In this document: positions 6,230 through 63,600 of the stretch, piece after piece
Layout: each line of letters starts with the position of its first letter
Numbering within the stretch: the stretch's first letter is position 1
Assembly (NCBI GenBank): GCA_001600815.1
Contig: BCKZ01000007.1
Span: 854,059 to 918,058 of the forward strand
Reading direction: 5' to 3'
DNA: 64,000 bases
Source of the DNA: Alloascoidea hylecoeti
Taxonomy: Eukaryota
The notes under the pieces: model-generated
What the model was told of the DNA's origin: nothing
The model's input: the letters and a program-made list of their open reading frames with translations, nothing else
Databases searched by the model: none
Made by a program: the position numbers and the translations under genes

Positions 6230-7175
6230 GTAGATGTAAATCTTATAGTAGGGAAGCTCAAATAATATAATACAGCTATACAATCAAAATGAAGCGTAAT
6301 CACCACCATAAGATAATAAAAAAAGTTCATATTTCAGATGATTAATATTATAACTTATGAGATTATTACAGGGTAAGTTTTGTAACAGCCGCAAGAGCCT
6401 ATATCATAAGAAACACAAAAGTAAAAACATTTTTTAAAAAATTTAACAAAATTATTTATTGTCTATCGATATCTACAAGGTACTCAATTAATTCCATCGA
6501 AGTGGGATACAGGAGAATCTGGTATTATTTTTTATATATTTTTACAAGCATTTTGTATAGCTTAATAGTTGAAATACTTCGTAAAGATGGAGGTATGTTC
6601 TCCGAATCATTCACCATTTCTCCAATTTAATCAAGGTTAAGAATAGTCTAAATAGGTGTAATATTGACAAGCCACTTGCATTAACTCTAGGAGACTTCGA
6701 TAGTTTCCGGTGAATTGAGTGCTTGGTGTGGCACATATCCAGTAGTAGCACAGACAGGACTTAAACATATATGCAGCAGATGGGCAATTGCAATCTTCTT
6801 ACCAGAAATCGAATATTCTTAAAACGAATCGGCCAACCACTTCATATTTTGTTTATCAGCCTATTTAGTGAGTCGTCCGTAAGCAACGGACGTATTCTAC
6901 CTTCTGAGTGACACCAAAGGTTTGTAAAATCTAAAAAATATATTAACAGATTCTCCTGTCCCACCTAAGATGCGTACCTTTTATATAAAATGACAACAAT
7001 TTTGTTAAATTTTAAAACTTTTGTGCTTCTTATGATATGTTATCACGATTATTAACATTTTGGCGGTTATTATGAAACTTACCCTATACTTGAACTTGCA
7101 ACAATTCCTCGATAAGTTTACTTATCTGATTGTAGCTATAATTACTAACTTACTATATTTATAGATTTAGCTATT
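6230..7175. repeat. Long imperfect inverted repeat (foldback), arms ~6230-6557 and ~6912-7175
   Basis: AGGGTAAGTTT (6370) / AAACTTACCCT (7075); TATCATAAGAAACACAAAAG / CTTTTGTGCTTCTTATGATA; AAAATTTAACAAAATT / AATTTTGTTAAATTTT; ACAGGAGAATCTG / CAGATTCTCCTGT. All blocks are in mirror order. Confidence 0.85.
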
Positions 7176-12146: not shown

Positions 12147-12920
12147 ATGCCTGTCAACGATCATACTTCCCTAGTGTTAATCCATTACTCAAGCCTCACT
12201 GATACTTTACAAGGAATATCAATCAAATATGGCGTAGAAATGTCCCTTCTGAAACAAGCAAACCGAATATGGAGGGATGTCGATGTTTGCTTAAAGAAGT
12301 TCCTTTTTATTCCTCTTGATCCCCTAGTCTTAAAAACTAACAAAAATATGATATATCAACCGTTAAATAGTACTTCTTCAGCAAGTGGCACGGAAGAATT
12401 TCTTTTGGAAACTTTTGGATCCATAGAAAAGGATAATATTGATATGAATAGTCTTTCCCGGAATCAGCTTTCCACTTATAAACCACAACAATTACTACAA
12501 CAAATTCATCAAATAGTAAACAATGACATCCAAGAACAACTTCTCTTAAAGGAACGGAAAGCTCAGTTTACAATATGTGGATATTGTCTCGATGGTGATT
12601 TTGCTCGGATACTTGGTCATGTGCCCATGAAATATTTAGGTTATTTCCAATCAACAAACCCACGGCCGCCAAGCCGTGCTGAAATTTTAAACATAGAGCA
12701 AAGCTTGAACGAATACAAGCGTTGGCTTCCTAACGATAATACAAAAGATCATAGTTTCGTTAATCAACATGATGTATATGGTAGTGAAACATTTTCAAAT
12801 TATGGGCATTTGGATTCATTTTATGACATTTTGTTTTCAATATTTACTAGTTTACAATCATGTATTTTTAAAGGAAAAGACTTGGGAGATGAAATTGAAT
12901 TAAGAAAGAAAAATGTTTGA
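12147..12920 (+). CDS. LysM-domain protein, divergent from GVP36
   Basis: The N-terminal IHYSSLTDTLQGISIKYGVEMSLLKQANRIW...LFIP matches the LysM pattern. No signal peptide is evident. Confidence 0.75.
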   Translation: MPVNDHTSLVLIHYSSLTDTLQGISIKYGVEMSLLKQANRIWRDVDVCLKKFLFIPLDPLVLKTNKNMIYQPLNSTSSASGTEEFLLETFGSIEKDNIDMNSLSRNQLSTYKPQQLLQQIHQIVNNDIQEQLLLKERKAQFTICGYCLDGDFARILGHVPMKYLGYFQSTNPRPPSRAEILNIEQSLNEYKRWLPNDNTKDHSFVNQHDVYGSETFSNYGHLDSFYDILFSIFTSLQSCIFKGKDLGDEIELRKKNV

Positions 12921-12994
12921 ATTAGAAGCTTAAGGTTTATTTGATTTGTTATTCAAACGTAGAGGATGTGCCATTTACTGATGTGGGTGTTTAT

Positions 12995-13069
12995 TTTTTT
13001 GTTTTTTGTTTTTTGTTTTTTGTTTTTTGTTTTTTGTTTTTTGTTTTTTGTTTTTTGTTTTTTGTTTTG
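12995..13069 (+). repeat. (TTTTTTG)n microsatellite, about 10 copies
   Basis: Read directly from the sequence. Confidence 0.95.
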
Positions 13070-13810
13070 ATGCTATGTATTATGGTAGAGTTTAAATTGA
13101 TCATTTGCTTTCAGTTTTTCATATTTAATTGTAATCATACTTTGCTATAACTTATTATTTAGCTACTATTATAGACAGTATTAGACACACGCCATAATAT
13201 ACTTTTATAATGTAGACAATATATAAATATTAACACTTGCGTAATCTCAATAAAACCCAGTCTTTCTTCATTAGTGATTCATCACCGATATCCATTTGAA
13301 GCTTATCGAAAATTTCCATAATATCTCCGGATCCCCGATTAATTCATAACTTTAATCCTTCCCTTTCTGTCACATAAGTTTAATGTCTTTAAACGTGTCA
13401 TATAAATACACATATACGGAGCAGTGAACACCTTCAATCATTTATACATCGATTGGTTTCAAATTATGGCCATCAATATTAATGTTGTTTCTGAGAAAGA
13501 CATATTTTGATTTGAAGTGGAATCCTGTTAGAATTCATGCAGATATGCCTATTTTGGTCGTGTCAGCAGTCTCGGGTTTACGCACGACTTTATTATGCCA
13601 TTTAATGAATAAAATGGGTATCCCGGTTATAATTATATGATATGGAGTCTACTACGGATATTTTGTTTTTTTGGGATATATTAATCGTGCTGGGCTTATA
13701 CGCAGTTGTAGTGTACCATTCCAAGTTAGCAGGTACATTTATAAACAATCTTTCAAGTAGCTATTACCATTTGAATTCAATAGTTAGATATTTAGTATAA
13801 CTTGACTTGA

Positions 13811-14226
13811 AATATTCTAGCAACAAATACATGTACACTTATATTAAAGTCAGGAAAATCTTTCTTCTCTTATACATTAGTATTGTATAATACTTACAGG
13901 TAGTTAGTATTTTGTATTGTTATTATATATTGAGTGGAATCATTATAGACTATTTAGGTTACAGCTTATATTTATATATTTAGTAATCGGATTAATGAAA
14001 TAAAGAAGGATAAATGGATGTGGTTTAGTAATAGGGGCTAAAGACTAAGAGCTCATTTAAACGAGTTAATAATCTTCCTAATATAGTTATAAATTATTAT
14101 TAAGAGTGAGAAAATAAAAGTTTCCACTTACATTCGAAAATTGATTGACCGCCGAGAAAATTAACGAACCATCAGAAACTTTGCTTGAATTATAATTAAC
14201 CACAGTCTGAAATTAACAGGCACATA
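13811..14226 (+). repeat. Left arm of long inverted repeat (partner 18870-19315)
   Basis: 14086-14226 is a near-identical reverse complement of 18870-19007 (few substitutions, one 3-bp indel). 13811-13874 matches 19261-19314. Confidence 0.9.
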
Positions 14227-14978
14227 CCTAATTTTAGAGATGAAAGGACATTTTGAATAGAGAAGTCGGTATATCAAGTGAAATATTTAGTCTACTACAA
14301 GTTTCCATCTGTACAGTACAGTAGTTGAGAACCAGAAAAGTCATTATAGTAGACATTTGAAAGAGTTCTCTATTTTTGGTTACCTTATTGATTATTGTGC
14401 TTTCAGACATTTTTGATAGAGATGCTTTTATTTTCCCACGGGACCCGGTTTATATTAAGCTACACGAAAGATACAAATAGTTTGTATACCTGAGATGTAG
14501 TCTTTTCTAAAACATCTAACTTGATTAATATATAAGTTATATAAGCCCCAAGAAGTTTGGTACCCCAAATCTAAGCATTGAATGGGTTTAAAGAAGATAT
14601 CAACACCAGTTTAACAGAGCTCTGAAAGTGATATCAATACTTGAAAAGGAGAAAGATGGTGGGAAAGATCAGGAAAATCTTTTGGGAAGGGAACAGAACT
14701 TCTCTTCAACTTGTTGAACACGAAGTAACCAAAATTTAAAGTTAATGGTTTGTGAATTAATTGGTTATATTTGTTATTCAGAGAGAAAAGATAATATCCC
14801 TCAATCTTCATCTCAAATGCTATTCCATAAATTTTATCTAGAATCAAGCATTAATGTTTTATGGGTGGAAAAGAAAAGAAAATTTTAAATTCTTATCAAC
14901 ATCAATATCACCCTCGATTATTCATATATTCAAATACTATTTTAGGATATATATATAATAAATATTTAATCTTTAAAT

Positions 14979-16328
14979 CTACAATAAAAGAGATTCTTTT
15001 CCTTCCTTTGAAACAATGGATTTGACTCCTTTATAACCGTTAAATGTAGCTTCTGTTCTTTCTCCAAATCCAGCGAAATCAATAGGAGGAATTCCCTTCA
15101 AGAATCGTTTAGATTGTTCCCTTACATATGAAATATTCCCTTCTGTTTTAGGAACCGATGCAATATAAACCACAGCTGCAACTTCATCACCTCTATGCTC
15201 TACTTCAACAGCATGAATCATATCACAATGCCACCAAACGGTATCACCAGGGTTGACATCTGGAATTGGTATCAAACATTCTTCAAGACGAAGATGGGGG
15301 TGTGATACAGATGACAGATATTGCGATTGATCAGCCCAAGTACCTGGAAACCAAGCTTTCTCCATATCAATTTCCCAATTTTCGGGGTCTAAATATGCTG
15401 GGTCTTCTGGGGATTTCTTGGCAGTGAAAAATGGTCTTAATAAAATATAAGCAATAGTGATCTTAACAAATGGATATAGACAAATACCACCTCGTTTCTC
15501 ACCAATATGACTTAAAGCTGTCCAACCTTGAAATGTTCTGAAAACTCTAGAATGTGGGAAGAATCGAGATCCAGGAAACAATTCTTGATTTGCCGATTGT
15601 CTATGTTCTAGGTCAAACATATCCAAATCTTCAGGATGTCCAGACCAAACTGCATCATAACATGACTTATATGTTGGATCGACCCATCTGGTGAGACTTC
15701 CAGCGTCCACATGAGGGCCAATTCCAATCATAGGCTTACCAGGTTGCCTTAATCTGATTGCATCGGCATATGTTAAAGGTTCAACAAGGTGCTTGTTTTC
15801 TCCGGTAATGTTTCTAATCCATAACTCATTCAGCCATTTTTGAAGTTTAAGATGGTCTGGTTTAGAACGAAGAGTTACTTGAGTAGGTGACCAACAAACA
15901 TTCAAAATACATGGATTATCAATTGGTCTACCATCAATTTGATCTTTATTGTCTTTTTGATATTTAAGTGCATCTTCTAATAAACCTGTAATTTCATCAT
16001 CATCAACAACATTTCTAACAATTAAGCATCCCGCTTCTCTCAACTTTTCGGTTTTCTTTGTATCTTTACTAATTTCATCTAAATCTGCAAACTCAATAAC
16101 AGGAATCGCGGACTTCTTCTCCCTGGCAAGTTTTTCAGTTAGAAACTTTAATTCATTGCAAGTTTTAATCCATGATTTCATAAGATTTCTTGTTCCATAT
16201 TCGTTAATAATGTCCTGGAGGTATCCACGATACTCTTCATGATGTTTCATAGCAACTGGATCGCGCTCAGTGTATTGAGGCCAATGAGCATTTGCAATGC
16301 TAATTGGATTTGGAATTGAAGCGGTCAT
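14979..16328 (-). CDS. DUF1479 (YbiU/Gig2-like) protein, putative 2OG-Fe(II) oxygenase fold
   Basis: Motifs PLTYADAIRLRQPG, GPHVDAGSLTRW, RVFRTFQGWTALS, YILLRPFF, HPHLRLE and PGDTVWWHCDMIHAVE (HxD...H triad). Intronless. Confidence 0.85.
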   Translation of the reverse strand: MTASIPNPISIANAHWPQYTERDPVAMKHHEEYRGYLQDIINEYGTRNLMKSWIKTCNELKFLTEKLAREKKSAIPVIEFADLDEISKDTKKTEKLREAGCLIVRNVVDDDEITGLLEDALKYQKDNKDQIDGRPIDNPCILNVCWSPTQVTLRSKPDHLKLQKWLNELWIRNITGENKHLVEPLTYADAIRLRQPGKPMIGIGPHVDAGSLTRWVDPTYKSCYDAVWSGHPEDLDMFDLEHRQSANQELFPGSRFFPHSRVFRTFQGWTALSHIGEKRGGICLYPFVKITIAYILLRPFFTAKKSPEDPAYLDPENWEIDMEKAWFPGTWADQSQYLSSVSHPHLRLEECLIPIPDVNPGDTVWWHCDMIHAVEVEHRGDEVAAVVYIASVPKTEGNISYVREQSKRFLKGIPPIDFAGFGERTEATFNGYKGVKSIVSKEGKESLLL

Positions 16329-17681
16329 ATTGATTTCTCTTATAACTTAAGTAATATTGATCTTACAATTAATACTTTAATAAAAATTGTAATTGAAAAT
16401 AAACAGGAAAATGAAAGGATTTATATATAAATTTTGATGATTATCTTATAACACTGAGATTATAAATTTTTCAAAAAAAGCTATAACTTATAATGAAACT
16501 TAATTATTATAATTATATATATCAGTTTAAGGTTAAAATTTACCCCAGAAAACCCCGTGTGTTAATAGTTAACATTGCATATCCAACTCTAATAAATAGA
16601 ATATAATAATAAATTATAAAGTGAAAGACAGATCAAACGCTGAAATAATAGTTCTCTGCATTCCCACATTCGTAAGCATTTCCCTAAATGATCAAGCTGC
16701 AGATTCTAGTTGTTATGGATGCGGAATACCTTCCTGAAAGAGTAATTGAGCAAAACAAAATCATTTTCACTATTCACCAATATCCTTTATTCGGTCTAAT
16801 CAGTTTGGTATTATCCAATTAAAGGGGGTTATTTCAATTTTTGTGAATAAAAAAATGAAACCGTTATCTCCTTACATTTTCAATGTGAATTAATACTAAA
16901 TTATGATCGATGATATCATAATTCATGAATAACATGTCGGTATATACATACTATTTAATGAGTTTGATTATAAAGACCCCCACTTAATCAAGAAGGATCT
17001 GCATTATATAGCTATACACGGATATTTACTTCTAAATCAGGTGCTAATATTCTAGGCTTGAATGATTTAGTTATTGATGCATTATTATATCGATTTTAGA
17101 GTTGGACGGTTTTGAATTAATCCGAAAAACCTTGACATAACCGAGTATATGTATTTGTGCTACAGATTTGTTTTCCTATAATTATCTATACTAGATTTAT
17201 CTTTCAATTAGTTTCTATAATAATAAAGACTATATTATTTATAACCTTACATATATATTCTCCTAGATTTACAATAGATAAACGAGATAGCTTTTTAACC
17301 CAACCTGATTTTATCTTATTGTACAGCTTACAAGTCAAAAAATATATTAAACAGTCAAATAAATATATGCAATTCATGTAAAGGTTAGTCAGGCTGAATG
17401 AACAGATTATATATTATAATTAGCTATTGTTTTTGATACCTTTTTACTTTAGATTCAGCTGTAAAACAAAAAAATAAAGACAAAAAATGAATAAAAAGAG
17501 TTGCAAAGCTTTCTCTCGACAATCATATAAAAGGAAACAACAACAAATTTAAATAGTCGGTTGCACTCATAATTCAAGCTTAAGCGTATCTTAAAAGGCT
17601 TGTATCAATGTTTCGTAAATATCAACTAAATTTATAAATTTAATTCAAACAAAACAAATTAAATCTTTATAGTATGTATCA

Positions 17682-17997
17682 TTATAAGGGGTTGACTTCA
17701 AGGTTGTAATCATTCCTTCTTGCAGCTTCTCTAAATTCAACTGAGGAAGTTAAAGATTTTATCACATTGTCAGGTTTTTGAAGTTTGTTTGTGCTTAAAG
17801 GACCATACTGCTAAGCAGACTTTCTGTATTCAGCAAATGTAGATGAAGAAGGTTGAGAAGTTTCAGTTTTAAAAGTTTTGCCAGATTTTGATTCTGTATA
17901 GCATATTGTAACGGATGAAAATAGATGAGTGAGTTAGCTTGACTAATCTTGGTGTGAAGCATTTGGTAGTAGTAGAACCCATTGCAGAAAGTACCAT
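17682..17997 (-). pseudogene. Disrupted small mitochondrial protein gene, DPI8(YJL133C-A)/KGD4-like motif
   Basis: Reconstruction: MVLSAMGSTTTKCFTPRLVKLTH/LFSSVTICYTESKSGKTFKTETSQPSSSTFAEYRKSA*QYGPLST...NPL*. This needs removal of a 4-bp ACTC duplication, and there is an in-frame TAG at 17811-17813 inside the FxEYRxxAxxYGPL motif. Confidence 0.6.
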
Positions 17998-18379
17998 TAG
18001 GTTTTTGAATCGATTGCTAAATGAATATCAATATTATATACATATATACCTAGATATGAATATAAGAAGAGGGGGAAAAGGGGTTTACCACTTTATAGAT
18101 AGATTCACAGCTGTGTTTCATGCTTCAGAGAATAGTTTATTTTTTGAAAATGCTATTGAATTTATACATTACGTTATCATACTTAATTAAAAGTGGCATG
18201 GTTGATTTATAATAGAATTTCAATTGCAATGATATTAGAGTATTTTTCGTCGGATTAAAGGTTAAATACAATTGAGGCATAAAAACTGCAGAAGTTCTAT
18301 CATTTGTGCTGGCATTTCCAATATAATAATTATAGACTGATGATACAATGGGGATATAGAAAGAGGATCTTAAAAGTTA

Positions 18380-18776
18380 AAAGGATCCCAGCTTTAGAAG
18401 TCTCTAAAGAATCATTGAATGAACCCATCCTTTTAAAACTTATAGAAAATACCTAAAGAATTCAACTGGTCCATCATGTCAAAATCAATAGAAACACCTG
18501 AATTGAATCGTGATTTATATCCAATGAAGTTAAGAAATGTTTTGGATCTTGACAGGCATTATAAGAAATGGGCTGGCGAGTATACCGGTATACTAGGTAG
18601 GGATCCTAATCTAAAGAAATACAGAGTATTATAAGGCAAGAATTACCAATGAGGAAAGAAAGAAGACGATTACAGCAGAGGTCTTGAACGATGAGAATAT
18701 TCAAAAACTTTTCAAAGGGAAATATAATGAAATTTAAGCTGAGTCTAGGAAAATATTTTACAAGAATTCGAAGTGA
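18380..18776 (+). pseudogene. FCF2: FCF2 (pre-rRNA processing) pseudogene
   Basis: ETPELNRDLYPMKLRNVLDLDRHYKK, then a frameshift, then NTEYYKARITNEERKKTITAEVLNDENIQKLFKGKYNEI*. This follows the Fcf2 domain pattern (TPELKRDL..LK.R.VLDPKRHYKK...EFY.SR....RKKT..EE.L.D....YFKRKY.EIQ). Confidence 0.8.
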
Positions 18777-18869
18777 CAAATATATCAGTCGTGCTACTAT
18801 TACTTTAAATTGATTTTCAATAAATTTAATTTTCAGTATGTCTATAAATGCGAATGTTCAGGAGAAAGA

Positions 18870-19315
18870 TATGTGCCTGTTAATTTCAGACTGTGGTTAA
18901 TTATAATTCAAGCAAAGTTTCTGATGGTTCTTTAATTTTCTCGGCGGTCAATCAATTTTCGAATGTAAGTGGAAACTATTTTCTCACTCTTAATCATAAT
19001 TTACAACCAATTACGTTTTCTTAATTTCCTTTCCTTTTTAATTCTACTTTATGCCAAATATTCTATTGGTCAGAAGATTAGGAGCTAAACGACATTGAAT
19101 AATTATAATGAATAGCTACTCAGATATGATTAATATAATTTAGATTCCTATTAATTTGTAGAAGAAGAAAGTGATAATTAGGTTGAAAAAGGTTTAAATT
19201 GTAAAAGTATCTTTTTTCACCTTATCATTTTATTATGAAGCATACCAAACTATGCTCATCTATAAGAGAATAACTATTTTCCTGGCTTTAACAAGTGTAT
19301 TTGTTCTAGAATATA
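18870..19315 (-). repeat. Right arm of long inverted repeat (partner 13811-14226)
   Basis: TATGTGCCTGTTAATTTCAGACTGTGGTTAATTATAATTCAAGCAAAGTTTCTGATGGTTC is the exact reverse complement of the left-arm segment ending at 14226. Confidence 0.9.
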
Positions 19316-19747
19316 TGATGGTTGTTCCACATTTTTTCCTTCCCCTAATGCGCCTCCTTGGCTCTTAACTGAATCGAGCCACTAGTGAAAGAGGATGTGC
19401 ACCTAGTACATCATGAATGAAATGATACTTGCTAATGAGCGATCAAAAATTGCTTATTATATTTGATATTCATTATGCATACGTTAAAAAAAATTCAATG
19501 AGTACGATATTTTCGAAAGATAATTACCGGGTATAACCTCCTTCATTAGTTTGTTGATTAGCTATATGATTAAATATTGATTGCAAAGATATATATATAT
19601 ATATCATAAGTATAGTAAGACATTATTATTAACTGTAAAAAGGGCATTACCTATACCGTATATATCATTTACATTTGTTTATAGATAATCTTGATTCGAA
19701 CACGATCTAAAGCCCATAAAATATATGAGTTAGTATATGATTGGGAA

Positions 19748-22243
19748 TTATTTAATATCTAGTCCAACTTGTAACATCATTGAAGAGCAGTCGCTCTTAT
19801 TAGCAGAGTTAGGTTGTATAATAGACCTTGTTTTATAATCATAACTTAACCTGCTATTCAATAACGAGCTAATCCTTCCAGAATTTATGTTTAAATTTAC
19901 TTTTCGATTTATTCTAGGGGGCATTCTTAATTCTTCGGTTGCTAAAGGTTTTATTATTTCACGATCAAAGGAAGGTAAATAAATCACAGTTTCTTCAAGG
20001 TCGTTTTCTTCATCAAACTCAAAATCAGATTCACTATCTTCATCACTTATATTTTCTTCTTCAGAAGTTTGATCTCCAAAGGGAAGACCTGTAATATCAA
20101 TGATGTATTCTAAAACTCTAGTCCACTCTCCAACCAGATATAAATTATCAGGGGACATAATGGAAGGAGGAGATATTTTTCCATCAATACCTATATTTGA
20201 ATCATCGAATCCCACCTGAATAACATACGTATTATTTAATTTTGTTGTTTGTAATTTATTGTAAAATTTCGAAATGGCACCGAAGTTTGATATAATAAAA
20301 TTAAAGGAGTTGTTGTTGTTCTCGTTCTTGTTTTCAAATATAGAAGACATTACATCACTAAAAGGCTGAAGCTTTTGTTTCATGGATGATTTATCTCCTA
20401 TTTTTTGTAGAAGAGTCTCCCATCCTAAGTCATTTGATTTTATTGGAGCCTGTTGATAATACACATTAGCATTGCTACCGTCGTGTCGTCTGCCTGTACT
20501 TAGAGTGACAGAGAGTAGATCATTTTCTTTAAGTTGTGTTAAGATTGCTCTAATATTATTCGAGACAATAAGGCTATCTGATGGAGTATATGAATGATTA
20601 ATATAAAAATAATATACCTTTTCATTTGTATTAATTAAATTTTGTGAATTAGCAACAACATTATTACTAGAGGCATCAGGTGTTTTACTAATAATAGATT
20701 TTGATCCAGACTCTAGGAAATTCATTGGTGATTTTGGAGTCCCGTATCGTTCTAATGTATCAATATCTAAGGTTGCAGTGGTTTCATAGTACTCAAACTT
20801 TTGTCCTTGATAACGTAATGCTAAAGACCATCTTTGCAATACAGAATCAACTTTGGAAGATAGGTATAATTCTGGAAGGAAAGGTGAATTAATTTTCAAT
20901 TGTATAACATCTTCGTGACCGATAGGAACTGTTACCGACATTCCTTCTTTATCAATCATAGCAACACCTTTGATGTGGTATGAAGCTTTATCGTTTGTGG
21001 TGCAAGATTCAGATAAATTTTTATTCAAGGGTTCAATCATGAGTAAAGAGTTGGTAAATAATACACATATTAAGGTCTGAAATTCGTCAATAGTTTCTCC
21101 AACTTTTAAAATATCGATTAATCGAAGTTCTTGAAATAAATTTGTATCTAATTCATACCAATCTTCAATTCCATCCAATAATGCTTTGCGAACATTTTCT
21201 CGTAGCTTTTTTATTTTCTGAGAACCAATTAATGATAATGAATCATCAGACAAGTTTTTCGTCCTTAAGCTTTGAAATGATAATACTGGTGGTGGAAGAC
21301 TATTAATATCTTGATATACAACTTCCTTTTCTGTCTCTACACCATGCACTTTGATAGGTGTTTCAGTATTTGTAAATTTATATCTTCTGTCTTTGATATT
21401 CGGTATAGGACTAGTAAATGATCTTTGAATTTGCTGTTTTTCTCTTTGAAACGAAAATGAATATGAATGTGTAGACGAAGGAATTTCACCGTTATGAAGA
21501 TCAGGTAATAAAGGTGTAGTTGATGTCTTTTTACTTGATAATAAATTATTCAGCCTTTCTGGGTCATAATGAGTTGTATGATCATGTCCACCAAAAACAT
21601 TAGACTTATTTGTGAGCACCTTCGTCATTATCTCTTCAAAGAATTCACTATTCACGGGTACCAAACTCGTTTCATTCCCACAATCAGGGCAGTGTGGTAG
21701 TATATGATTAGAATTTAAATAAGAAGATGGATTTGAATTGGGATTGCTATTGTTGAAGTTAGATTTAACCAGATAGGTAAAACAATGCTCATGAGAACAA
21801 TGTCCACATTCACATTGGATTGGTTTTTCACCATCCATCATTGTCACTAACGACTCTTTACATATACAACAGTTTTGCCTCATTATATTCTTCCTCTTTC
21901 CCATTTTCTTCCTTTGTTCGCTAGATGAATAACTGTGAGAGAAAGTATTACTCCTATCAGATGAGCCGTAAATAGGATTTGGTTTCCCAGGATAGCGACT
22001 ATAAATCTCAGAAGATAACATCTCTGTTGAGCTTTTAAAAGTAAAACTATCTTCAGATCCTATGGAATTGGTTGATGTTGGTGTTTGCGGTTGGATAAAT
22101 TCAAGTGAAAAAGAATTACCACTTACCCGCGGGGATATCTTCAAATCTCTGATACTTGGTTTCTTTGGAGAAATATCAGTCATAGAATCCGGAGATTTCT
22201 TTTGAAATTTGCTTGCAATTTTAGAAAGCATAGAATATGACAT
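19748..22243 (-). CDS. Far1/Ste5-family scaffold (RING-H2 + PH + degenerate vWA)
   Basis: RING-H2 CCICKESL...CECGHCSHEHCF...CPDC, PH-like ELRLIDILKVG...CVLFTNSLLMIE...QRWSLAL, a vWA-like C-terminal region and an acidic tail. Confidence 0.75.
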   Translation of the reverse strand: MSYSMLSKIASKFQKKSPDSMTDISPKKPSIRDLKISPRVSGNSFSLEFIQPQTPTSTNSIGSEDSFTFKSSTEMLSSEIYSRYPGKPNPIYGSSDRSNTFSHSYSSSEQRKKMGKRKNIMRQNCCICKESLVTMMDGEKPIQCECGHCSHEHCFTYLVKSNFNNSNPNSNPSSYLNSNHILPHCPDCGNETSLVPVNSEFFEEIMTKVLTNKSNVFGGHDHTTHYDPERLNNLLSSKKTSTTPLLPDLHNGEIPSSTHSYSFSFQREKQQIQRSFTSPIPNIKDRRYKFTNTETPIKVHGVETEKEVVYQDINSLPPPVLSFQSLRTKNLSDDSLSLIGSQKIKKLRENVRKALLDGIEDWYELDTNLFQELRLIDILKVGETIDEFQTLICVLFTNSLLMIEPLNKNLSESCTTNDKASYHIKGVAMIDKEGMSVTVPIGHEDVIQLKINSPFLPELYLSSKVDSVLQRWSLALRYQGQKFEYYETTATLDIDTLERYGTPKSPMNFLESGSKSIISKTPDASSNNVVANSQNLINTNEKVYYFYINHSYTPSDSLIVSNNIRAILTQLKENDLLSVTLSTGRRHDGSNANVYYQQAPIKSNDLGWETLLQKIGDKSSMKQKLQPFSDVMSSIFENKNENNNNSFNFIISNFGAISKFYNKLQTTKLNNTYVIQVGFDDSNIGIDGKISPPSIMSPDNLYLVGEWTRVLEYIIDITGLPFGDQTSEEENISDEDSESDFEFDEENDLEETVIYLPSFDREIIKPLATEELRMPPRINRKVNLNINSGRISSLLNSRLSYDYKTRSIIQPNSANKSDCSSMMLQVGLDIK

Positions 22244-22473: not shown

Positions 22474-25400
22474 CTATATCAATCCCCAACCTTGAACAAA
22501 CTTCTTCACTAATCCACTTCTAATAACATCGTCACATTGTAACAAACAAGGTGCCACTATCTCAGTTAATGAAGTGTCAAAAATTGGAGTTTTGAAATTT
22601 TGGCGGTTGTTATATAATTTATCAAAATGGTCCAGAAGTTTAATAGTGGGATTAATTTTAGCATCATTTGGACTTTTTTCTAATAAATTCAGCCATTCAC
22701 TGATCCCAACAACCTCGAAATCCAGACCAGCATCCTTCTTTAATGTCGGCAGTAGGTCTCTTGTCCAATCAACTAGTTTGGGCGTTGTAACATTGTAAAC
22801 AACATCTGCTCCATTAATAGTCTTACCCAAACTCTTTTCTTTTGCTTCTCCCTCAAACAATATATCTAATAAAACATCGGCTACGACGTCAACCGGTGTC
22901 CATGATAGAGTTTCAGTAAGTGCTGGAAGTGCCTTCAAAACTTTAGCACTCTGAATCATCAAAGGATAGGCCTCAGTATTATTCCAAATACCATTTTCGG
23001 TGTCACCCACAATCTGTCCAATACGAGCAGATCTTGCATATATTCCCGTCTGGCTACAGGCATTCCTAATAATATGCTCGCTTGCCAGTTTTGACTGGCC
23101 GTAGCCCATTGGAGCAGCTGATCTGGAGATATCATCCATTATTGCTTCAGGAATTGGCGTTGTTGGACACATCAAAGCGCTAGAAATAGAGGAACAGAAA
23201 ATAAACTTGGCTGGAGTTGATCTCTTAGAACTCAATGCTAACTTAATTAAATCAGAAACAGCTTTAATATGCGGTTCAAAAAATGCTAAGCTATAATTGA
23301 AATTGACAGGCCAAGCACAATGAATAATTGATGAAAGTGATTCAAGCATTTCGGGTTCGAATGATAACAAACAATCTTTAACATTTCCATCTTTTCCAAG
23401 TTCAAAAGGTATTCCCACAATTCTATCAACGATCTTTTCATTAGTCAGATCTATTCCCCTGATTTTAAGGCTTTTCAATATCCGATCTTGTGCTTCTTCT
23501 TTACTGCCTGCTCTCACTATACAATAAACCTTCTTGACCTTATACGATAATAATAAATCCCTCAAAACAAAAGCACCTAGAGAACCAGTAGCTCCGGTTA
23601 AAAGAACAACTTCAGAACTATTATCAGCCGTGTATGGATATCTATTTCCATCTGAAACCCTTATGCCAGAGAAGTCAGAATATTTCTCAATTAGATTTTT
23701 GACTGTTAGTCCAGATTGTTGAGAATTTGGTTTCAGGCTACAATCTAGTGTCATATCACCTGAATGTGTCAGTGAATAAATATAGAATGCAAGGTCTTTG
23801 ATAGTGGGATATTCATAGATGGCTGTTCGTTTTAAATCACTATACAACATTTTGTGTAGTTCACCCCAAACAGCAATAGCCTGTAAACTGTCAACACCAG
23901 CTTTAAATAGATCTAATTCTGACGACTCTATTGAAACACCCACTTCGTTGAGCGTGTTCATGATATAGTCATTTATTTCTTTCAGGCTCATTCCTGAAGC
24001 CTTATTTAAATACATAGTAGCAGCTTGAGACTCTACTTCGTTGTATTTCTTATCAATTTCCTCAGCAAATTCTTTATAGAACATTCGCCTTTTAATGGAT
24101 CCTTTATCTGCATAGGGATATGCGACATCATATGGAAGGACTATTACCATATCCTTTAATATTCGTGAGAATTTTTCAACTTTTTCATTTGTATCAGCAA
24201 TCATGGGCCATATTTTCTCCAAAAATTCATCTGTGTCATCTTCCTTATGGGCTGGAATAATGAAAATACCAGGAATAGCTTTTCCTATTCCAAACACAAC
24301 ACATTCCTTTATTAAAGGACTTTGTCTAATTCGATATTCTATTGGAAGAGTCAAAACCTTTTCGCCAGTTGATAATGTGACTCTATCGTCTTTTCGCCCT
24401 TCGTATTTATACCAATCATGATCAGGGTGCTTTATAAAAAGATCACTAGTATCCCATCCACCATCGTCACTATTGCACAGACAACGCATGGGGAAATCCT
24501 CTTTCAAATGAAGTTCAAAAGTCCCATCCCCTTGATCAACAAATGAAACGTATTCCTCAAGACCATGAAGTGGGGTGTACCACTCCCAATCCATATCAGT
24601 TTTACGATAACTAGACATGACAACACCACCTTCTGTCGATCCATACATGCAATGAAATCTTGTGTTAGAAGTAAATAACATTTCATCGCCAATCTCTTTT
24701 GATATTTTACCACCGCTCATACCAACGAAATGCAATTTTTTCAAAGCATTCATACCTTCTTCCATCTTCAACATTTCCATGACTGTATATGGAACCATAA
24801 TAGCATTTTTTATACTTGGTTGACTGATTATTGTTTTGGTAACATTATTCGGAGTCAATGGTTGACAGAAATTGAAAAAAAAAACGGTATCACGCTGGCC
24901 AAATCGTCCTTCATAGCCATGAGTTCCAAGCATATGAAATATTGGAGCTGTTACAATCATGTCTCCAGTTAAATCATTGGAAAGGTACTTTATGAGCTGC
25001 AAAACAAATTGGTTAGATTGCGCAACTAATTTGGGGAATCCTGTTGAACCTGATGAATGGGCAAAGTAAGCTGCTCTAGTACTTAAACCCTTATTATCTT
25101 CATGAGATGCAGAGAAGTTAATTGCATTTGCAATATTTTCCATGCTGCTGAATTCTTCAAAATAAACAGCTTTAACGGCTTCAATACTAGGATCTGTATC
25201 ATTACATTCGTTAACGACTTCGGCATAGCCTTCATAAAGTAGTCTTTTGGGACCCTGGAAATCATCTAGAAGCTTCGATACAATTTCCCCTGTTAATCTT
25301 GGTGATGTTAAAAGAGGAGAATAACCTAAACGATATAGAGCTTGTTGATTCACAAGCAACCTGATACCAGCAGGGACCAGAACGCTAACACCAACATTCC

Positions 25401-25626
25401 ATGTGTTTCTGTCTTCCAAACAAACAGGAGGAAACCCACGTTTACTAAGCAATGTTGCACATGAATCAATCCACTGGTTGAATTCTGTAGCAGAAACTGG
25501 TCTATAATCCACAAGTGTTTCATCGTTGATAGGAATTTGAAGTAATGGCTTTGATCCATAATGTTCAGGTAGTGCTCTCAGAAACTCATCGTAAGTAAAT
25601 AGATCATCAAGGCGAATACTCGTCAT
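22474..25626 (-). CDS. NRPS-like adenylation-thiolation-reductase (A-T-R; carboxylic acid reductase-like) enzyme
   Basis: A domain HSSGSTGFPK, YGSTEGG, DTSDLF, GRKDD..GEKV and ADKGSIKR; T domain LFKAGVDSLQA; R domain LLTGATGSLG and YGQSK. 1050 aa, intronless, shorter than Lys2. Confidence 0.92.
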   Translation of the reverse strand: MTSIRLDDLFTYDEFLRALPEHYGSKPLLQIPINDETLVDYRPVSATEFNQWIDSCATLLSKRGFPPVCLEDRNTWNVGVSVLVPAGIRLLVNQQALYRLGYSPLLTSPRLTGEIVSKLLDDFQGPKRLLYEGYAEVVNECNDTDPSIEAVKAVYFEEFSSMENIANAINFSASHEDNKGLSTRAAYFAHSSGSTGFPKLVAQSNQFVLQLIKYLSNDLTGDMIVTAPIFHMLGTHGYEGRFGQRDTVFFFNFCQPLTPNNVTKTIISQPSIKNAIMVPYTVMEMLKMEEGMNALKKLHFVGMSGGKISKEIGDEMLFTSNTRFHCMYGSTEGGVVMSSYRKTDMDWEWYTPLHGLEEYVSFVDQGDGTFELHLKEDFPMRCLCNSDDGGWDTSDLFIKHPDHDWYKYEGRKDDRVTLSTGEKVLTLPIEYRIRQSPLIKECVVFGIGKAIPGIFIIPAHKEDDTDEFLEKIWPMIADTNEKVEKFSRILKDMVIVLPYDVAYPYADKGSIKRRMFYKEFAEEIDKKYNEVESQAATMYLNKASGMSLKEINDYIMNTLNEVGVSIESSELDLFKAGVDSLQAIAVWGELHKMLYSDLKRTAIYEYPTIKDLAFYIYSLTHSGDMTLDCSLKPNSQQSGLTVKNLIEKYSDFSGIRVSDGNRYPYTADNSSEVVLLTGATGSLGAFVLRDLLLSYKVKKVYCIVRAGSKEEAQDRILKSLKIRGIDLTNEKIVDRIVGIPFELGKDGNVKDCLLSFEPEMLESLSSIIHCAWPVNFNYSLAFFEPHIKAVSDLIKLALSSKRSTPAKFIFCSSISSALMCPTTPIPEAIMDDISRSAAPMGYGQSKLASEHIIRNACSQTGIYARSARIGQIVGDTENGIWNNTEAYPLMIQSAKVLKALPALTETLSWTPVDVVADVLLDILFEGEAKEKSLGKTINGADVVYNVTTPKLVDWTRDLLPTLKKDAGLDFEVVGISEWLNLLEKSPNDAKINPTIKLLDHFDKLYNNRQNFKTPIFDTSLTEIVAPCLLQCDDVIRSGLVKKFVQGWGLI

Positions 25627-29467: not shown

Positions 29468-29753
29468 AAAAGATTTATAAAATTTGTTAATAGACGTGTA
29501 TTTCAACTTGATTGTTTTATTCTTTTTTTTTTTGTTATGTTTAATTGAATACAGTGTTTTGCGTTCATATCGACCACTTGTTGACCTGTATATTCGCCCA
29601 CATGTTAAATTAATAATTTGACCATATGGTGTAAAAAAATTCGATAATATCTTGTAATTGCGGCCACATGTAAATATTGTTGCATGTTATAATGTTGATA
29701 TTGTAATTTTTGAAAGGATATAAGGATGGTTCACTGGCTATGGAATTATTAAA

Positions 29754-29876
29754 CAAAACATGCTCAAGACCGGCCTTTCAAAAACTTGAAGGGCGTTAAA
29801 ATTTCAATGGGGAAATATCTTTCTTCTAATATAACACCCTTCAAGATTTTGAAGGACTGGTATTGAGTATGTTTTG
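29754..29876. repeat. Imperfect palindrome with ~50-bp arms (MITE-like hairpin)
   Basis: CAAAACATGCTCAAGACCGGCCTTTCAAAAACTTGAAGGGCGTTA versus the reverse complement of TAACACCCTTCAAGATTTTGAAGGACTGGTATTGAGTATGTTTTG. Confidence 0.85.
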
Positions 29877-30108
29877 CTGTAAAGGTGGCCGAAATTGAGT
29901 GAGATGACTGGTCGAATATTATTGCATCGTGTTGCCGAATTATTAGCTGAATGTAGACGAATACATTAGTGCAAAACAGAGCTTAAAAATATGGCACGTG
30001 ACATACACGTGCTTATAACTGACCAACCAGCGGGTCTGAATTATATCACAGTAATGCTTTTAACTCTGAATTATTTGAAATCTCCTACCAGCCGGCTGAA
30101 GTCAAAAA

Positions 30109-51688: not shown

Positions 51689-52384
51689 ATTGGATAGAAA
51701 GGATAAAACAAAGAATAGATTGTTTATATATTGCTGCTCTTGTTAATTTTTTCTTTACTCATTATTATATTTTATGTTATCTGTTTTATTTTTGACGATT
51801 TTTTGAACACATGAAAATGACCAAACGAATGGTCTTTTATGTTTATCTTTACATATGTACTTGTATTTATCATTGGTTAATAAAAATGTCATGACAATTT
51901 ATTAGACCTGTTAAAGTTCTTAAAACCTGTAAATGTCACTGTAGTTAGATCTCATGGATGCGAAATATATCATTTTTTACACTCAAATTTTAAATCTTAA
52001 GATTTTCTTCTAGGATATAATTATTCTAACTTCTGAGACCTTATCGGAGAAGAGCGGCCTGCCACTGTTTAACTCTATCGGCAGCTAATCTTTTGTGAAT
52101 AATCATTTGAGCCCAATTATCTATGATTACATAAATGTAGTAATCTGATTCGGCGTTAAATTCAATATAAAATCAATAGATTTTCAGTGTTGTGAAAAAT
52201 TGGGCATCGCCAGTTTCCTGATTTAGAAAGACAGTCACAAAAACTGGAGAATATTACAGAACGACTGTGTATATCAAGGAACGTATTCTCCAAAATAATT
52301 ATGACGAGTTAAAGCCGGGTAAATTGTGAATGAAAAACAAGATTTTGAAATACTTTTCATTATACAAACAACAAGAAATCCAAT

Positions 52385-53152
52385 ATGGCTGTAGGTAAAA
52401 ATAAGAGGCTCAGCAAAGGAAAGAAAGGTCTTAAGAAGAAGGTTGTCGACCCATTCACAAGAAAAGACTGGTTTGATATCAAGGCCCCATCTACATTTGA
52501 AAACAGAAATGTTGGTAAGACTCTCGTCAATAGATCCACTGGTTTGAAGAACTCAGCAGATGCTTTGAAGGGACGTATTCTTGAGGTTTGTCTTGCTGAT
52601 TTACAAGGACAAGAGGATCACTCTTTCCGTAAAGTTAAGCTCCGTGTTGATGAAGTTCAAGGAAAGAATTTACTTACCAATTTCCACGGTTTGGACTTTA
52701 CCTCTGACAAGCTACGTTCATTGGTTAGAAAATGGCAAACTTTGATTGAGGTTAACGTCACTGTCAAGACTACAGATGACTACTATTTGAGAATCTTTGT
52801 TATTGCTTTCACCAAGAGATTACCTAACCAAATTAAGAAGACCACATATGCCCAATCTTCTCAAATCCGTCAAATTAGAAAGAAGGCCACTGAAATTATC
52901 ACCCGTGAAGTTTCATCTGTTACTTTAGCTCAATTAACTTCTAAATTGATTCCAGAAGTTATCGGACGTGAGATTGAAAAATCAACAAATGGTATTTATC
53001 CATTACAAAATGTTCATGTCCGTAAAGTTAAATTATTAAAACAACCAAAATTTGACTTGGGCTCTTTATTAGCTTTACACGGTGAAGGTTCTTCCGAAGA
53101 TACTGGTAAGAAAGTTAAGGGATTTAAAGAACAAGTTTTAGAATCTGTTTAA
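52385..53152 (+). CDS. RPS1: 40S ribosomal protein eS1 (S3Ae)
   Basis: [35 protein letters not shown]...; full length. Confidence 0.98.
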
Positions 53153-53789: not shown

Positions 53790-54475
53790 CCGTATGCATA
53801 CTATTAAAACTTAAACACTTAAGCTTCGTTACAATCGCGTGTAAAGCTCTATTTATATAAAATAACTTAGTTCGCTCCCTGTTTGTTTTAGCTTTACAGG
53901 GCCTTCTAATTAATACAGTAATAGGGAAAAATTTTGAATCTAATATGATACTACTTAATTTAGGCCATTCTGACTACTTATTATCGGTCATCTACTAACT
54001 TATTCTTCGACCCCATTATTCGGGTTGATACGATCCGGAATATGCATGCAGGGATATAGAACAAAAAAGTTTTGAGAGTGACCAAAAATTAGTAGTTAGA
54101 ATGGCCTAAAGTAAGTGGTATCACTCCATTCGTTCCAAAGTTGTCTAGTTTGACGGATGTGTTCCTCAGTCAACTATTTATCAATAGATAAAAGATCACC
54201 ACACAAAAAGAAATGATGTAAGGGAAACTGTGGGCGCATTTTTGTGTGACGCAAAAAATAGTTGACAAACTAGTTTGGAACTGATCATCATACATTACAT
54301 TAGATTCAAACGTGTTTCTTACCCCCCGTGAGAGTATAACAATTTTTCTTTTTAACCTCTTGTGCGATTTGTATCATGATGGGGGTAGCGATTATAGCGA
54401 AACTTAACTAACACGTATAAAAAGCTTCTCATTCTAATATACGGTCATTTAGATTTTTCATTCTATATTTTTGTA
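53790..54475 (+). ncRNA. Candidate large structured non-coding RNA (identity, strand and ends uncertain)
   Basis: Nested helices: 53819-38/54388-407, 53840-48/53890-98, 53933-44/54299-310, 53946-90/54079-123, 54132-79/54255-81 and 54320-26/54381-87. Sm-like ATTTTTG at 54467. No ORF. Confidence 0.4.
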
Positions 54476-60339: not shown

Positions 60340-60650
60340 ATATAATGCAACATATAGAATGGTATCATGAATTAGAGTTTCTATACCAAATTGCAATACA
60401 ATATTGCTATACTAAAATAGCAGACTATATTCCGTAAATATTGGGTGTATTGTGCTTTGAAGCACTAAAGAGGAGGTTGAAAAGTATCTACGACAAGAAG
60501 ACAATAAAATCCCCACCAACCACCGACTTAAAAAAGAAAGGATTTGAATTCAATATACTAGAAGAAAACCGCTGAAGCTATAAACCTCAAAAATATTCGA
60601 TCGGCTTTCGTAACAACATAAATTAACCCTTTTAATCCCCTATCAAAGTT
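60340..60650 (+). mobile_element. Degenerate pogo/Fot1-type (DDE_1, Tc1-mariner superfamily) transposase fragment
   Basis: ILGVLCFEALKRR...LKKKGF...SYKPQ/NIRSAFVTT*INPFNP parallels PLDV.CF.PLKR...DK.DF...AFT..NI.SAF..TGI.PFNP with similar spacing. It contains stops and a frameshift. Confidence 0.65.
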
Positions 60651-63600
60651 TGGACAGGTGGTTTGGGTGGGTGAAAAAGAGAGGTAAACAAATCGAGAGA
60701 AATTTCATTTAATATGAGGATTTACTTGCAGAATGTAAATCCACCGCGTCTGTAAAAGAAATTTCTGTAGCATAGCTGGAAAAATCGAAAACATGTGAGG
60801 TATCTGATGTTTTTGAATTATGCATCTGGACAAACCACTTCAATTTGAATCAGGAGGGTTTCTCATCTTATGCTTCCACCACAGTGCTCAAAAATCCTTT
60901 AAAATATTCAAACAGGAGTTCAGACTTCAGGGAATGGAAGGACACTAATTACACAAAACTATCTGCAGATAACAAAGAGAAGTGTGTGTCAGAATATTAG
61001 ACCTAGTGTGCTCAATACACAAACGTAGAAACACAACCACATACTACACCAAACTTTGCAAATGAAATATAGAGCATATATTAATTACAAGATTAAGTAG
61101 ATTTTGTCAATACAATTTTTTTATATTTGTTGGTGGATTTAAAATTCGTGGTTGAAATGTAACAGTTTTGGGTTTCTCGTACCGTTAATCCTTCTCGTTT
61201 CCTTAGACCGACGGTAAAGAGTAAATATTCCCTTGTATTAGTCTGCGGTATATGTGTGAATGTTGTTTCACCATTTTGTGGAGCACATAGTTTGTTGCTC
61301 GAGTGTAAAATAAATCGTTATTTTTTTTCTTTTGATTTCGTCGTCAAATTCAGCATATTTGCGGAAGTATTTTAACCACTTTAGATAATAAAACTTGCGT
61401 TGCTACAGTGGCACATATTTGGTTAAACTCTTCGTGAAACATTTCGTCATTTGGATGACATTAAATTTGGCTATTTCGTTTCCTACTGTGGATATTACAA
61501 ATATTTCGTTATAATTATATCGCTTGAGATTTTCAAAAACCTTTCCCCGAATAAGTCTGAAGACTTTATAAGCTTTTATTTGAGATAATTACGTTACATT
61601 AGATATATATTAATCGGTAAAACTGATAGAGTAAAAAAGATAAAGTAAATAGTATATTAAATAGGAATAAGAAAAAGTAGAGAGTTAAATCCAATGGATT
61701 TAACTGTCTTATATATGTAACTATATAGGCTAAATAATAATAAGGAGGTGGCAATAATATTAAGGGGCTTGCTGTAGTATATGAATGACCACGTAACCCC
61801 TGCATATCTAATATGCAAGGCATGTAGTTTAATATAAATCTGAAACATATGTAGATCATTTGATGATTGATCTGCACTGCATATCGGATATGTAAGCATG
61901 AAATAAGTTAATTAAAATTGAAATAACAACAATATAATCTCCTATATCGATATTCGATCCTCAACGATCATTCATTACAATTCGTAGAACTCCGTGCGTG
62001 TATCTGTACTCTGTACTATCTCTGTAGTTGGATTCGATCCAACGTACGGTATGTGCATCGTGAAATATCACGATCTATTTTATCACAGCATATGAAACAC
62101 TTTAAACTGTTGTGAAATAATAGCAGTTATAATAATTCTAAATCCGATATATTGAGAATTTATAATGTGCATGTACACATATGTGTTAGAAATATACACT
62201 GTATTTTTTTTTCACGTGTATTTCATAGTATACGCGTACTAATAACTATCCATTCGTTAATTATTAATGTGTTAATTGAAATGACAGATGTAGTATTCCT
62301 CGCTATAGCTAAACTAACAATTGCAATTTGCAAATGCTAACATTGCAACATTAATTATAATAAATGTTGAAAATATGAAATTTAACTAAAAGATTAGTTG
62401 ATCTTGCCATACTATAGCCAGATATAAGGCTTATATTAGTTCTTTGAGTTTGAGTGTATTATAATGGGTGCCCACTGCCTACCCATTTTTAATCCACAAA
62501 TTACTTGTAATAACATATACTGTTGTGATGACTTTTAATTAAAGCCAAATGACCCAATCTTTTGTTCCTCAGAAATTAACTTATAATTTCCAAGATGCTG
62601 AAAATACACACACCAAGGTGGCAAACCACCAATATGATAAATTTTCTTCAAATTATATCTTCAGATTCCTAGAATGGATCATAAATCCCATTTTTTAAAT
62701 AATTTATCGCACAGTTTTCGAGAAACTTGCGTTTTAATATTTTTTTATTTGAGTGTTAACGTTAGTGTGATCATGATCAAAGGTTGACATTTACCTAGAT
62801 AAAAGAATTCCTCCAACTATTATGGTATAGTTATTGTAGTAAAATTAATGTATATAAATTATTTTGCGCGAGGAAGTGAAGTAATATATCACCAATTTAT
62901 TTCTTACTTGATTGAAGTCGGATCTAGGGTATAATTTCTGGAATCGTTAATTCCCGTATGTATTTTATCAACAAATAAACTTGTTTAGCTTTGTGTTAGT
63001 GTATAATTTCTTATTAGTAACATGACGCACTTGAATCTTTTATTATTAGTCTCTTTAATCTGATTTCAGGTTGTCTTTATCATTTGCATGTTATATAAAT
63101 AAAGATATAGATCTAGAAGTTACTAACATCGGTAGCTATATCATGTAGAGCCACAAGGGTAAATCTTGTACGACTTATTGAAAATCAAAGTAAACGTTTA
63201 CCAACCCCATATAAATATCCATAATTCCAGTTAGTTAAAAGATCAGATTATTGGTTATCATTTAATTTTACAATTAGTCATCATTATTAGTTCTAAGGAT
63301 TTTTAAATCTTTCCGGAATACTAATAAAATGAAGACATTAATTAATTTATTAATAAATGAATAAATAAATAAATTAATAGAGATGGACGTAGCAGTCACA
63401 TAAGATAGCTGATATTACAATAATCAGTAAAAACCAAATTACTCAAAAAAGAAGATTGAGATCCGTTATTGATGCATTGTAATTAACTTCATTTATGTAG
63501 GTTTCGTTAAATTTGTTAATATTTTCCCTGAAGTTTGAATAAATAAATCTCGGAAAAAAAGCTTAAATGGTATAATATGACATTGGTATATCATATAGTT

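Follow-up and report, generated by a model that had tools for sequence, protein, structure and literature searches.

We analyzed a 64,000-nucleotide window of the Alloascoidea hylecoeti genome (C7:854059-918058, where C7 is contig BCKZ01000007.1; the host assembly comprises 24.8 Mb in 136 contigs) and focused on a 5.5-kb segment at positions 13811-19315 of this window, in which an intact Gig2-like (DUF1479) oxygenase gene and the remains of other host genes stand between inverted arms. An earlier note on the same DNA had taken the segment for a Pack-type element, a transposon whose terminal inverted repeats (TIRs) enclose captured host genes, or for an invertible segment. With considerable reservation, we favor an old one-off repair or rearrangement scar in a repeat-rich spot rather than one of a family of gene-carrying transposons. 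Positions without a contig name are those of the window, and L numbers denote fetched stretches.

The inverted-repeat segment around the copied genes is real. Both segment junctions and a single 4.7-kb interior contig were reproduced in contigs from three sequencing runs, all three flagged as possible sources of the window DNA itself. The run contigs break at the arm core in the three runs, and each run shows the same filled site; run X5 gave nothing beyond scraps. As the same junctions and the same interior contig are found in three runs, an assembly artefact is unlikely. The named top matches of the window's Nug1 protein all come from Saccharomycotina at no more than 48% identity, and the host is thus a budding yeast on a long branch, searched against a protein collection that holds no close relative. 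Two metagenome scans for the locus of a relative found none, and a homologue search with the flanking protein that the earlier note presumed to be Far1-like, and to which Pfam assigned no family, returned only the protein itself. The gene of this protein borders the segment on the side opposite to GPC1-GVP36-LysM.

Inverted arms built of repeat remnants

The two arms match in two short blocks. The inner block, or core, covers 14086-14229 (144 bp, plus strand) on the left and 18867-19007 (minus strand) on the right, with 137 of the 141 aligned bases identical (95% counting gaps, self-BLAST). The outer 75-bp block pairs 13812-13886 (plus strand) with its inverted partner 19249-19314 (minus strand), and 57 of 66 aligned bases are identical there (76% counting gaps, self-BLAST). 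Core and outer piece each scored above 500 of 500 shuffles. The likeness of the middle parts, 13887-14085 and 19008-19248, was at chance level (83 of 500 shuffles reached its score), as was that of the flanks inside and outside the arms (240 and 311 of 500, respectively). The description of the arms in the earlier note was therefore right on their inverted orientation and on the near-identical inner ~140 bp, but colinearity over 420-450 bp did not hold up. The left middle is a separate dispersed repeat.

That repeat, A (13894-14084, minus strand), is ~195 bp long, dispersed and bounded by ends of its own, and fills the left-arm middle. It occurs at five other places in the genome, with 82-83% identity at C11 and C20, and its copy on C32 lies directly upstream of a DDE_1 (pogo/Fot1-type) transposase remnant. 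The right-arm middle (19008-19248) is unlike the left, and 19186-19273 matches three other places of the tandemly repeated family D. The left outer piece is partly the end of the dispersed repeat D and partly private to this locus. Two more families lie inside the arms, repeat B (14245-14435, plus strand; ~190 bp, at 12 other places among the matches listed) and repeat C (17093-17410, plus strand; ~310 bp, 19 matches at about 15 other loci), so that with family E, of which the cores are pieces, five repeat families occur within the 5.5 kb.

The core is 64-80% identical to other copies of E. On the left it is cut at 14229, where it adjoins repeat B, and on the right the feature extends over 18845-19007, adding 22 bases of repeat E that are missing from the left arm. 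An alignment of 21 copies of E shows one fixed end and ragged opposite ends, and the whole core aligns weakly (64%) to a long copy of E. At both arms the fixed end would point toward the interior, and it is absent from both, the reverse of what a TIR around cargo would show. The missing end was not found elsewhere in 12900-19800 with eight repeat copies as queries, and the junction that should result from a simple inversion could therefore not be demonstrated. The window region 60436-61176 has 12 matches elsewhere at 67-72%, two of these places being close to family E or to other repeats. A further pair of long E copies, at C5:421-428k (L080:1077-7884), measures 603 bp at 67% identity, is inverted with the fixed ends outward and encloses 5.7 kb of open reading frames (ORFs) that look host-like by eye. 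No target-site duplication (TSD) was seen there by eye, and the pair is a better-shaped candidate for a long-TIR element than the window segment.

The spacing of outer piece and core is comparable in the two arms, 199 vs. 241 bp, and a 31-letter pattern of the outer piece (≤3 mismatches) occurs at two places in 24.8 Mb, both of them these arms. Genome DNA searches, in which only the best candidates were scored, found neither a second strong core copy nor paired arm copies with other cargo such as the earlier note had proposed to look for. Since part of what the arms have in common occurs nowhere else, they do not reduce to a pair of copies of one widespread solo repeat, an alternative which that note had itself raised. 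A stretch of ~0.45 kb, made of D and E pieces and private sequence, is present twice in inverted orientation around a 4.6-kb mosaic, and locus-specific sequence is thus duplicated inverted at both segment ends, as in a staggered-break scar. The arms accordingly represent a single local inverted duplication of a repeat-remnant patchwork that was interrupted later. From their likeness we infer gene conversion between the cores; the uneven identity of the arms (4 mismatches in 141 core bases, 9 in 66 outer bases, unrelated middles) fits conversion together with later insertion.

Copied genes between the arms

Three blocks copied at the DNA level make up the mosaic between the arms: FCF2-MED8, a DPI8-like gene nested in the FCF2 copy, and the Gig2 gene with its promoter. 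The broken FCF2 gene recognized in the earlier note consists of a 5' piece (17029-17088, plus strand; 85% identical to its parent) and a 3' part (18323-18773, plus strand; 71-75% to C7:988.3-988.9k) with frameshifts and deletions, followed by a 59-bp piece of MED8 (18778-18836, plus strand; 78%), the neighbour of FCF2 at the donor locus. The FCF2 and MED8 pieces are colinear with an intact locus at C7:988-989.5k, ~115 kb from the segment, the intact copy that the note had expected elsewhere. In a six-frame Pfam search of 16330-18870, Fcf2 (PF08698, two frames) was the sole family; the absence of a transposase between the arms, also noted before, holds for this range, the other non-coding parts being unscanned by Pfam.

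Repeat C and the broken DPI8-like gene, likewise noticed earlier, sit between the first two FCF2 pieces. The latter (17415-18243, minus strand) is an 830-bp decayed copy of C25:21.4-22.3k, including 3' and 5' non-coding flanks, with 64% identity overall and 74% in the best part; the parent on C25 is intact. The name DPI8 is putative, Pfam having given the parent no family. Both parents that the note had asked for are thus located, and lying on C7 and C25 they are not neighbours. The nesting of the DPI8-like copy within the FCF2 copy implies at least two events, and the inclusion of non-coding flanks and of a piece of the donor's neighbouring gene implies copying at the DNA level. We rejected a retrocopy origin, as the non-coding flanks and the MED8 piece were copied too. 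Interior fragments copied as DNA from several host loci are a feature that the segment has in common with Pack-type elements.

The third block (14932-16961, minus strand) contains the Gig2-like gene and ~630 bp upstream of it. The gene itself (14979-16328, minus strand) is intact and intronless, as had been noted, and encodes 449 aa that match PF07350 over profile positions 12-407 of 408 (394.5 bits vs. a cut-off of 27; 6e-118). The protein has His206-Val-Asp and His371, which we take to be the predicted Fe(II) triad of 2-oxoglutarate oxygenases. It is the sole PF07350 locus found in the genome, where we found no canonical yeast-type Gig2. A decayed twin of the block is present in two oppositely oriented pieces 27 kb apart, C7:445649-446651 (L034) and C7:472706-472992 (L035). 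Both halves cover ~30 bp of the window sequence (15580-15608), and the split twin fits a 27-kb inversion that duplicated a short stretch where the DNA broke. About 2 kb away from the second piece there is a remnant of a Tc1-type transposase.

The relatives of the Gig2-like protein are found among filamentous ascomycetes. Among the best 119 non-self matches of 1149, 97 were organism-named, and all of these, assigned by genus, belong to Pezizomycotina, with up to 50% identity. Candida albicans Gig2 (6AKZ) scored 183 bits vs. 440-458 for the best mould proteins, using the same program on different databases. In trees computed with a quick method (70 and 29 rows), the protein falls within a 99-supported clade whose other named members are Pezizomycotina only, on a long end branch and in an unresolved position at the clade base; the proteins of Trichomonascus, Lipomyces, Limtongia and Sugiyamaella form a separate 99-supported clade. 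Forced grouping with those four yeast proteins was rejected (approximately unbiased [AU] test, P = 3e-51, 29-row quick tree), and the window Gig2 is therefore not the canonical yeast orthologue. Its placement suggests an old horizontal transfer from Pezizomycotina as the simplest explanation; hidden paralogy with losses is a possible alternative. The third-position GC of the gene, 0.24, lies within the 0.21-0.31 of its neighbours.

A proposed repair scar and competing explanations

If the segment is a repair or rearrangement scar, the copied blocks would have entered in two or more steps, each a copy-paste templated insertion at a double-strand break, and the inverted duplication would be the breakpoint scar of a staggered-break inversion or of the repair itself. 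The insertion of repeats A, B and C would have followed, A replacing the left middle, and recombination between the arms may have homogenized the 144-bp core by gene conversion. The FCF2 and DPI8-like copies presumably decayed because their parents were intact. The window copy of Gig2 may have been retained by selection, and the other copy would have decayed and been cut by the 27-kb inversion. Such a segment would have no machinery of its own and could at most flip passively by homologous recombination. Inverted pairs more than 300 bp apart were found in 10 of 52 fetched stretches (each at least 8 kb, 502 kb in total), a sample biased by having been picked for repeats or paralogues. In Drosophila, 17 out of 29 inversions are described as having inverted duplications where they broke (PMC1885836), and yeast repair mutants show copy-paste and complex multi-fragment insertions at breaks (PMC11724301).

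Several points weigh against a scar. Insertion and inversion are both inferred, and either of the two Gig2 copies may be the older. All three gene blocks have a counterpart elsewhere, as Pack-type capture would give, and a reading of the segment ends as TAG...CTA, with a 5/8 direct repeat, is possible. The templated insertions described in yeast come from repair mutants and involve much shorter inverted pieces (PMC11724301). Finally, in a control on eight genes of the window that lie outside the arms, all duplicates were stop-free ORFs (11 of 11 matches), so that decayed gene copies are not shown to be common genome-wide.

The reading closest to the earlier note is an old, hAT-like or Mutator-like Pack-TIR singleton with TAG...CTA ends, a decayed 8-bp TSD and long composite TIRs, which would have moved captured Gig2, FCF2-MED8 and DPI8-like DNA here and whose family would have decayed beyond detection. 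We consider this unlikely, and equally so its fuller form, a Pack-type TIR element with hAT-like ends in a budding yeast that joined pieces of three loci and transported an oxygenase gene, itself derived from filamentous ascomycetes by horizontal transfer, the copy on the element being the sole working one and the donor having decayed. A mosaic from three loci enclosed by inverted arms is what it would produce. The candidate TSD, 13810-13817 vs. 19309-19316 with the ends set at TAG 13818 and CTA 19308, is weak. It matches at 5 of 8 positions in direct orientation, with TA at the center, and Buster-type hAT elements prefer nnnTAnnn targets. However, the same 8-mers match at 7 of 8 positions when inverted and are inseparable from the inverted repeat itself; the chance of a direct match of at least 5/8 is ~0.05 for one chosen end pair, and the combination would look like a palindromic target or an inverted repeat extending by a few bases. 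At the outer ends, no TSD of at least 8 bp with ≤1 mismatch was found, which agrees with the inspection by eye in the earlier note. The scan there gave just a 5-bp AT-rich match, and that of the core ends one 8-mer with one mismatch and one 5-mer; since 650 and 625 end pairs were tried, respectively, we read these short direct matches as chance.

The genome contains pogo-type and Tc1-type remnants and three loci with the hAT domain PF05699 (two long diverged ORFs and one relic), which would suit such an element, but no sequence is common to the hAT loci and the arms, and the Mutator-like element (MULE) domain PF10551 had no candidates in the draft genome, where absence is no proof. Among transposon families, MULE thus came out negative and the hAT loci showed no relation to the arms, in a search that did not extend to Helitron and CACTA. 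The two long hAT-dimerization ORFs, L122:5893-8913 (C11) and L124:5379-8732 (C33), are intact, encode 1000-1100 aa, show no terminal repeats and are likely domesticated hAT transposases. No other element with the ends of the segment was found, its arms are a patchwork of other repeats with the E end facing inward, and yeast hAT elements have TIRs of 18-28 bp with 8-bp TSDs (PMC4316626). The segment thus lacks multi-copy family TIRs, continuous long TIRs and a cognate MULE or hAT transposase, and the earlier label of a Pack-MULE or TIR element is not supported.

Other explanations do without a mobile unit. Independent inverted remnants of E (and D), 4.6 kb apart, might have been homogenized by conversion, with a native Gig2 and the pseudogenes as bystanders. 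The weak alignment of the whole core to a long E copy, the dispersal of E including other inverted pairs on C5, and the packing of five repeat families into the segment are all consistent with this. However, the outer 75-bp match carries locus-only sequence at a matching distance from the core, so that either a longer stretch must have been duplicated or a conversion tract must have been long, and we regard coincidental remnants as decidedly improbable. A functional flip-flop segment under selection, switching by recombination in the core, is very improbable. The core is far more conserved than its surroundings, and the MAT loci of methylotrophic yeasts reportedly flip-flop between inverted repeats (10.1101/2025.09.09.675088). 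However, Gig2 and at least 630 bp upstream lie wholly inside the arms, so that flipping would reconnect no promoter and gene; no recombinase gene was seen in the segment and Rfam had no matches in 12900-19800; and conversion alone accounts for the core identity. We give hardly any credence to a centromere-type inverted-repeat locus that gathered pseudogenes and repeats. Centromeres of the inverted-repeat type are found in Komagataella phaffii and Candida tropicalis, and here, too, inverted repeats enclose a few kilobases with repeat debris, but an intact gene occupies the middle, the matching arm parts total only ~220 bp, and GC shows no trough when set against the remaining window.

Genomic surroundings and known systems

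For Saccharomycotina, the genome has unusually many old dispersed repeats, MITE-like elements (MITE standing for miniature inverted-repeat transposable element) and local inverted duplications. In the window, 6401-7038 is a MITE-like element with diverged inverted ends of ~150 bp, matched by 47 of 48 rows and hence present in dozens of copies. Short inverted-repeat elements lie at 29549-29966 and 53946-54123, the first with many partial matches genome-wide. A ~330-bp repeat at ~61600-61940, of which at least 13 copies are 99-100% identical, is the youngest repeat seen and resembles a solo long terminal repeat by its size. Elsewhere, C28:209-213k (L093:5818-9815) holds a broken inverted duplication in three pieces of 75-88% identity that flanks an 831-codon ORF, presumably a glycoside hydrolase family 3 (GH3) beta-glucosidase-like gene by eye. 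An inverted paralogue pair of 1.6 kb (85%) and palindromes of 964 bp (97%) and 570 bp (89%) were observed in other fetched stretches (L043:3931-9335, L041:8944-9901, L040:3969-4529 and L047). Fold-back duplications seem frequent in this genome.

The segment is adjoined by a non-ribosomal peptide synthetase-like A-T-R (adenylation, carrier, reductase) gene at 22474-25626, which has intact paralogues on C12 and C5 and more matches on C75 and C18. RPS1 (S3Ae) is present as three intact genes (window 52349-53152, C22:354k and C10:112k) with 99% identical proteins, and the pectate lyase, lipase, DEAD-box and GPC1-like genes have intact paralogues, too.

As a repair or inversion scar, the segment would be a natural, fixed case, in a yeast, of DNA-level copying from several loci, which is described at breaks in yeast repair mutants (PMC11724301). 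An oxygenase gene that is probably foreign may have been relocated by it. Should the Pack-TIR reading be true, the range of gene capture by transposons would widen to budding yeasts, in which class II elements are scarce (PMC4316626).

The oxygenase is a full-length member of the Gig2-like/DUF1479/YbiU family (PF07350; C. albicans Gig2, PDB 6AKZ) with its His-x-Asp...His motif, and differs in belonging to a clade in which the remaining named proteins are from Pezizomycotina, apart from that of Trichomonascus, Lipomyces, Limtongia and Sugiyamaella. The yeast hAT elements Rover/Roamer with the mRover1 MITEs (PMC4316626) and the Dici ITm transposons of Diutina (PMC13469147) are class II elements or MITEs of Saccharomycotina that have likewise been linked with inversions at element pairs, but their TIRs are short (18-28 bp and 8 or 33 bp, respectively) and their TSDs are clear. 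The word "captured" does not occur in the main text of the former report, nor "capture" or "cargo" in that of the latter, and a literature search, with most subscription papers outside it, found no report of Pack-TYPE capture in Saccharomycotina. With Pack-MULE, Pack-CACTA and Pack-hAT elements (PMC8903248), the segment shares gene pieces from several loci between inverted ends and the lack of transposase coding. Plant Pack-TYPE elements are defined by TIRs common with an autonomous family and a TSD, singletons being discarded as likely false (PMC8903248); the ends of the segment, in contrast, are private, interrupted, built of other repeats and without a clean TSD. The segment resembles Pack-type capture in outcome.

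With the staggered-break inversions of Ranz et al. 2007 (PMC1885836), the segment shares non-family sequence duplicated in inverted form at both ends and no TSD, and the split Gig2 twin suggests a second case in the same genome. The segment differs from them in that copied loci form a mosaic in its own interior and the uninverted outgroup state was not seen. The insertions in dna2, rad27 and RPA mutants of Saccharomyces cerevisiae (PMC11724301) match the interior, including copy-paste from distant loci with essential genes among them, joined fragments and inverted duplications. The inverted pieces in these mutants have medians of 50-150 bp, whereas the window blocks measure 0.8-2 kb, are fixed in the genome of a natural yeast and include a working gene.

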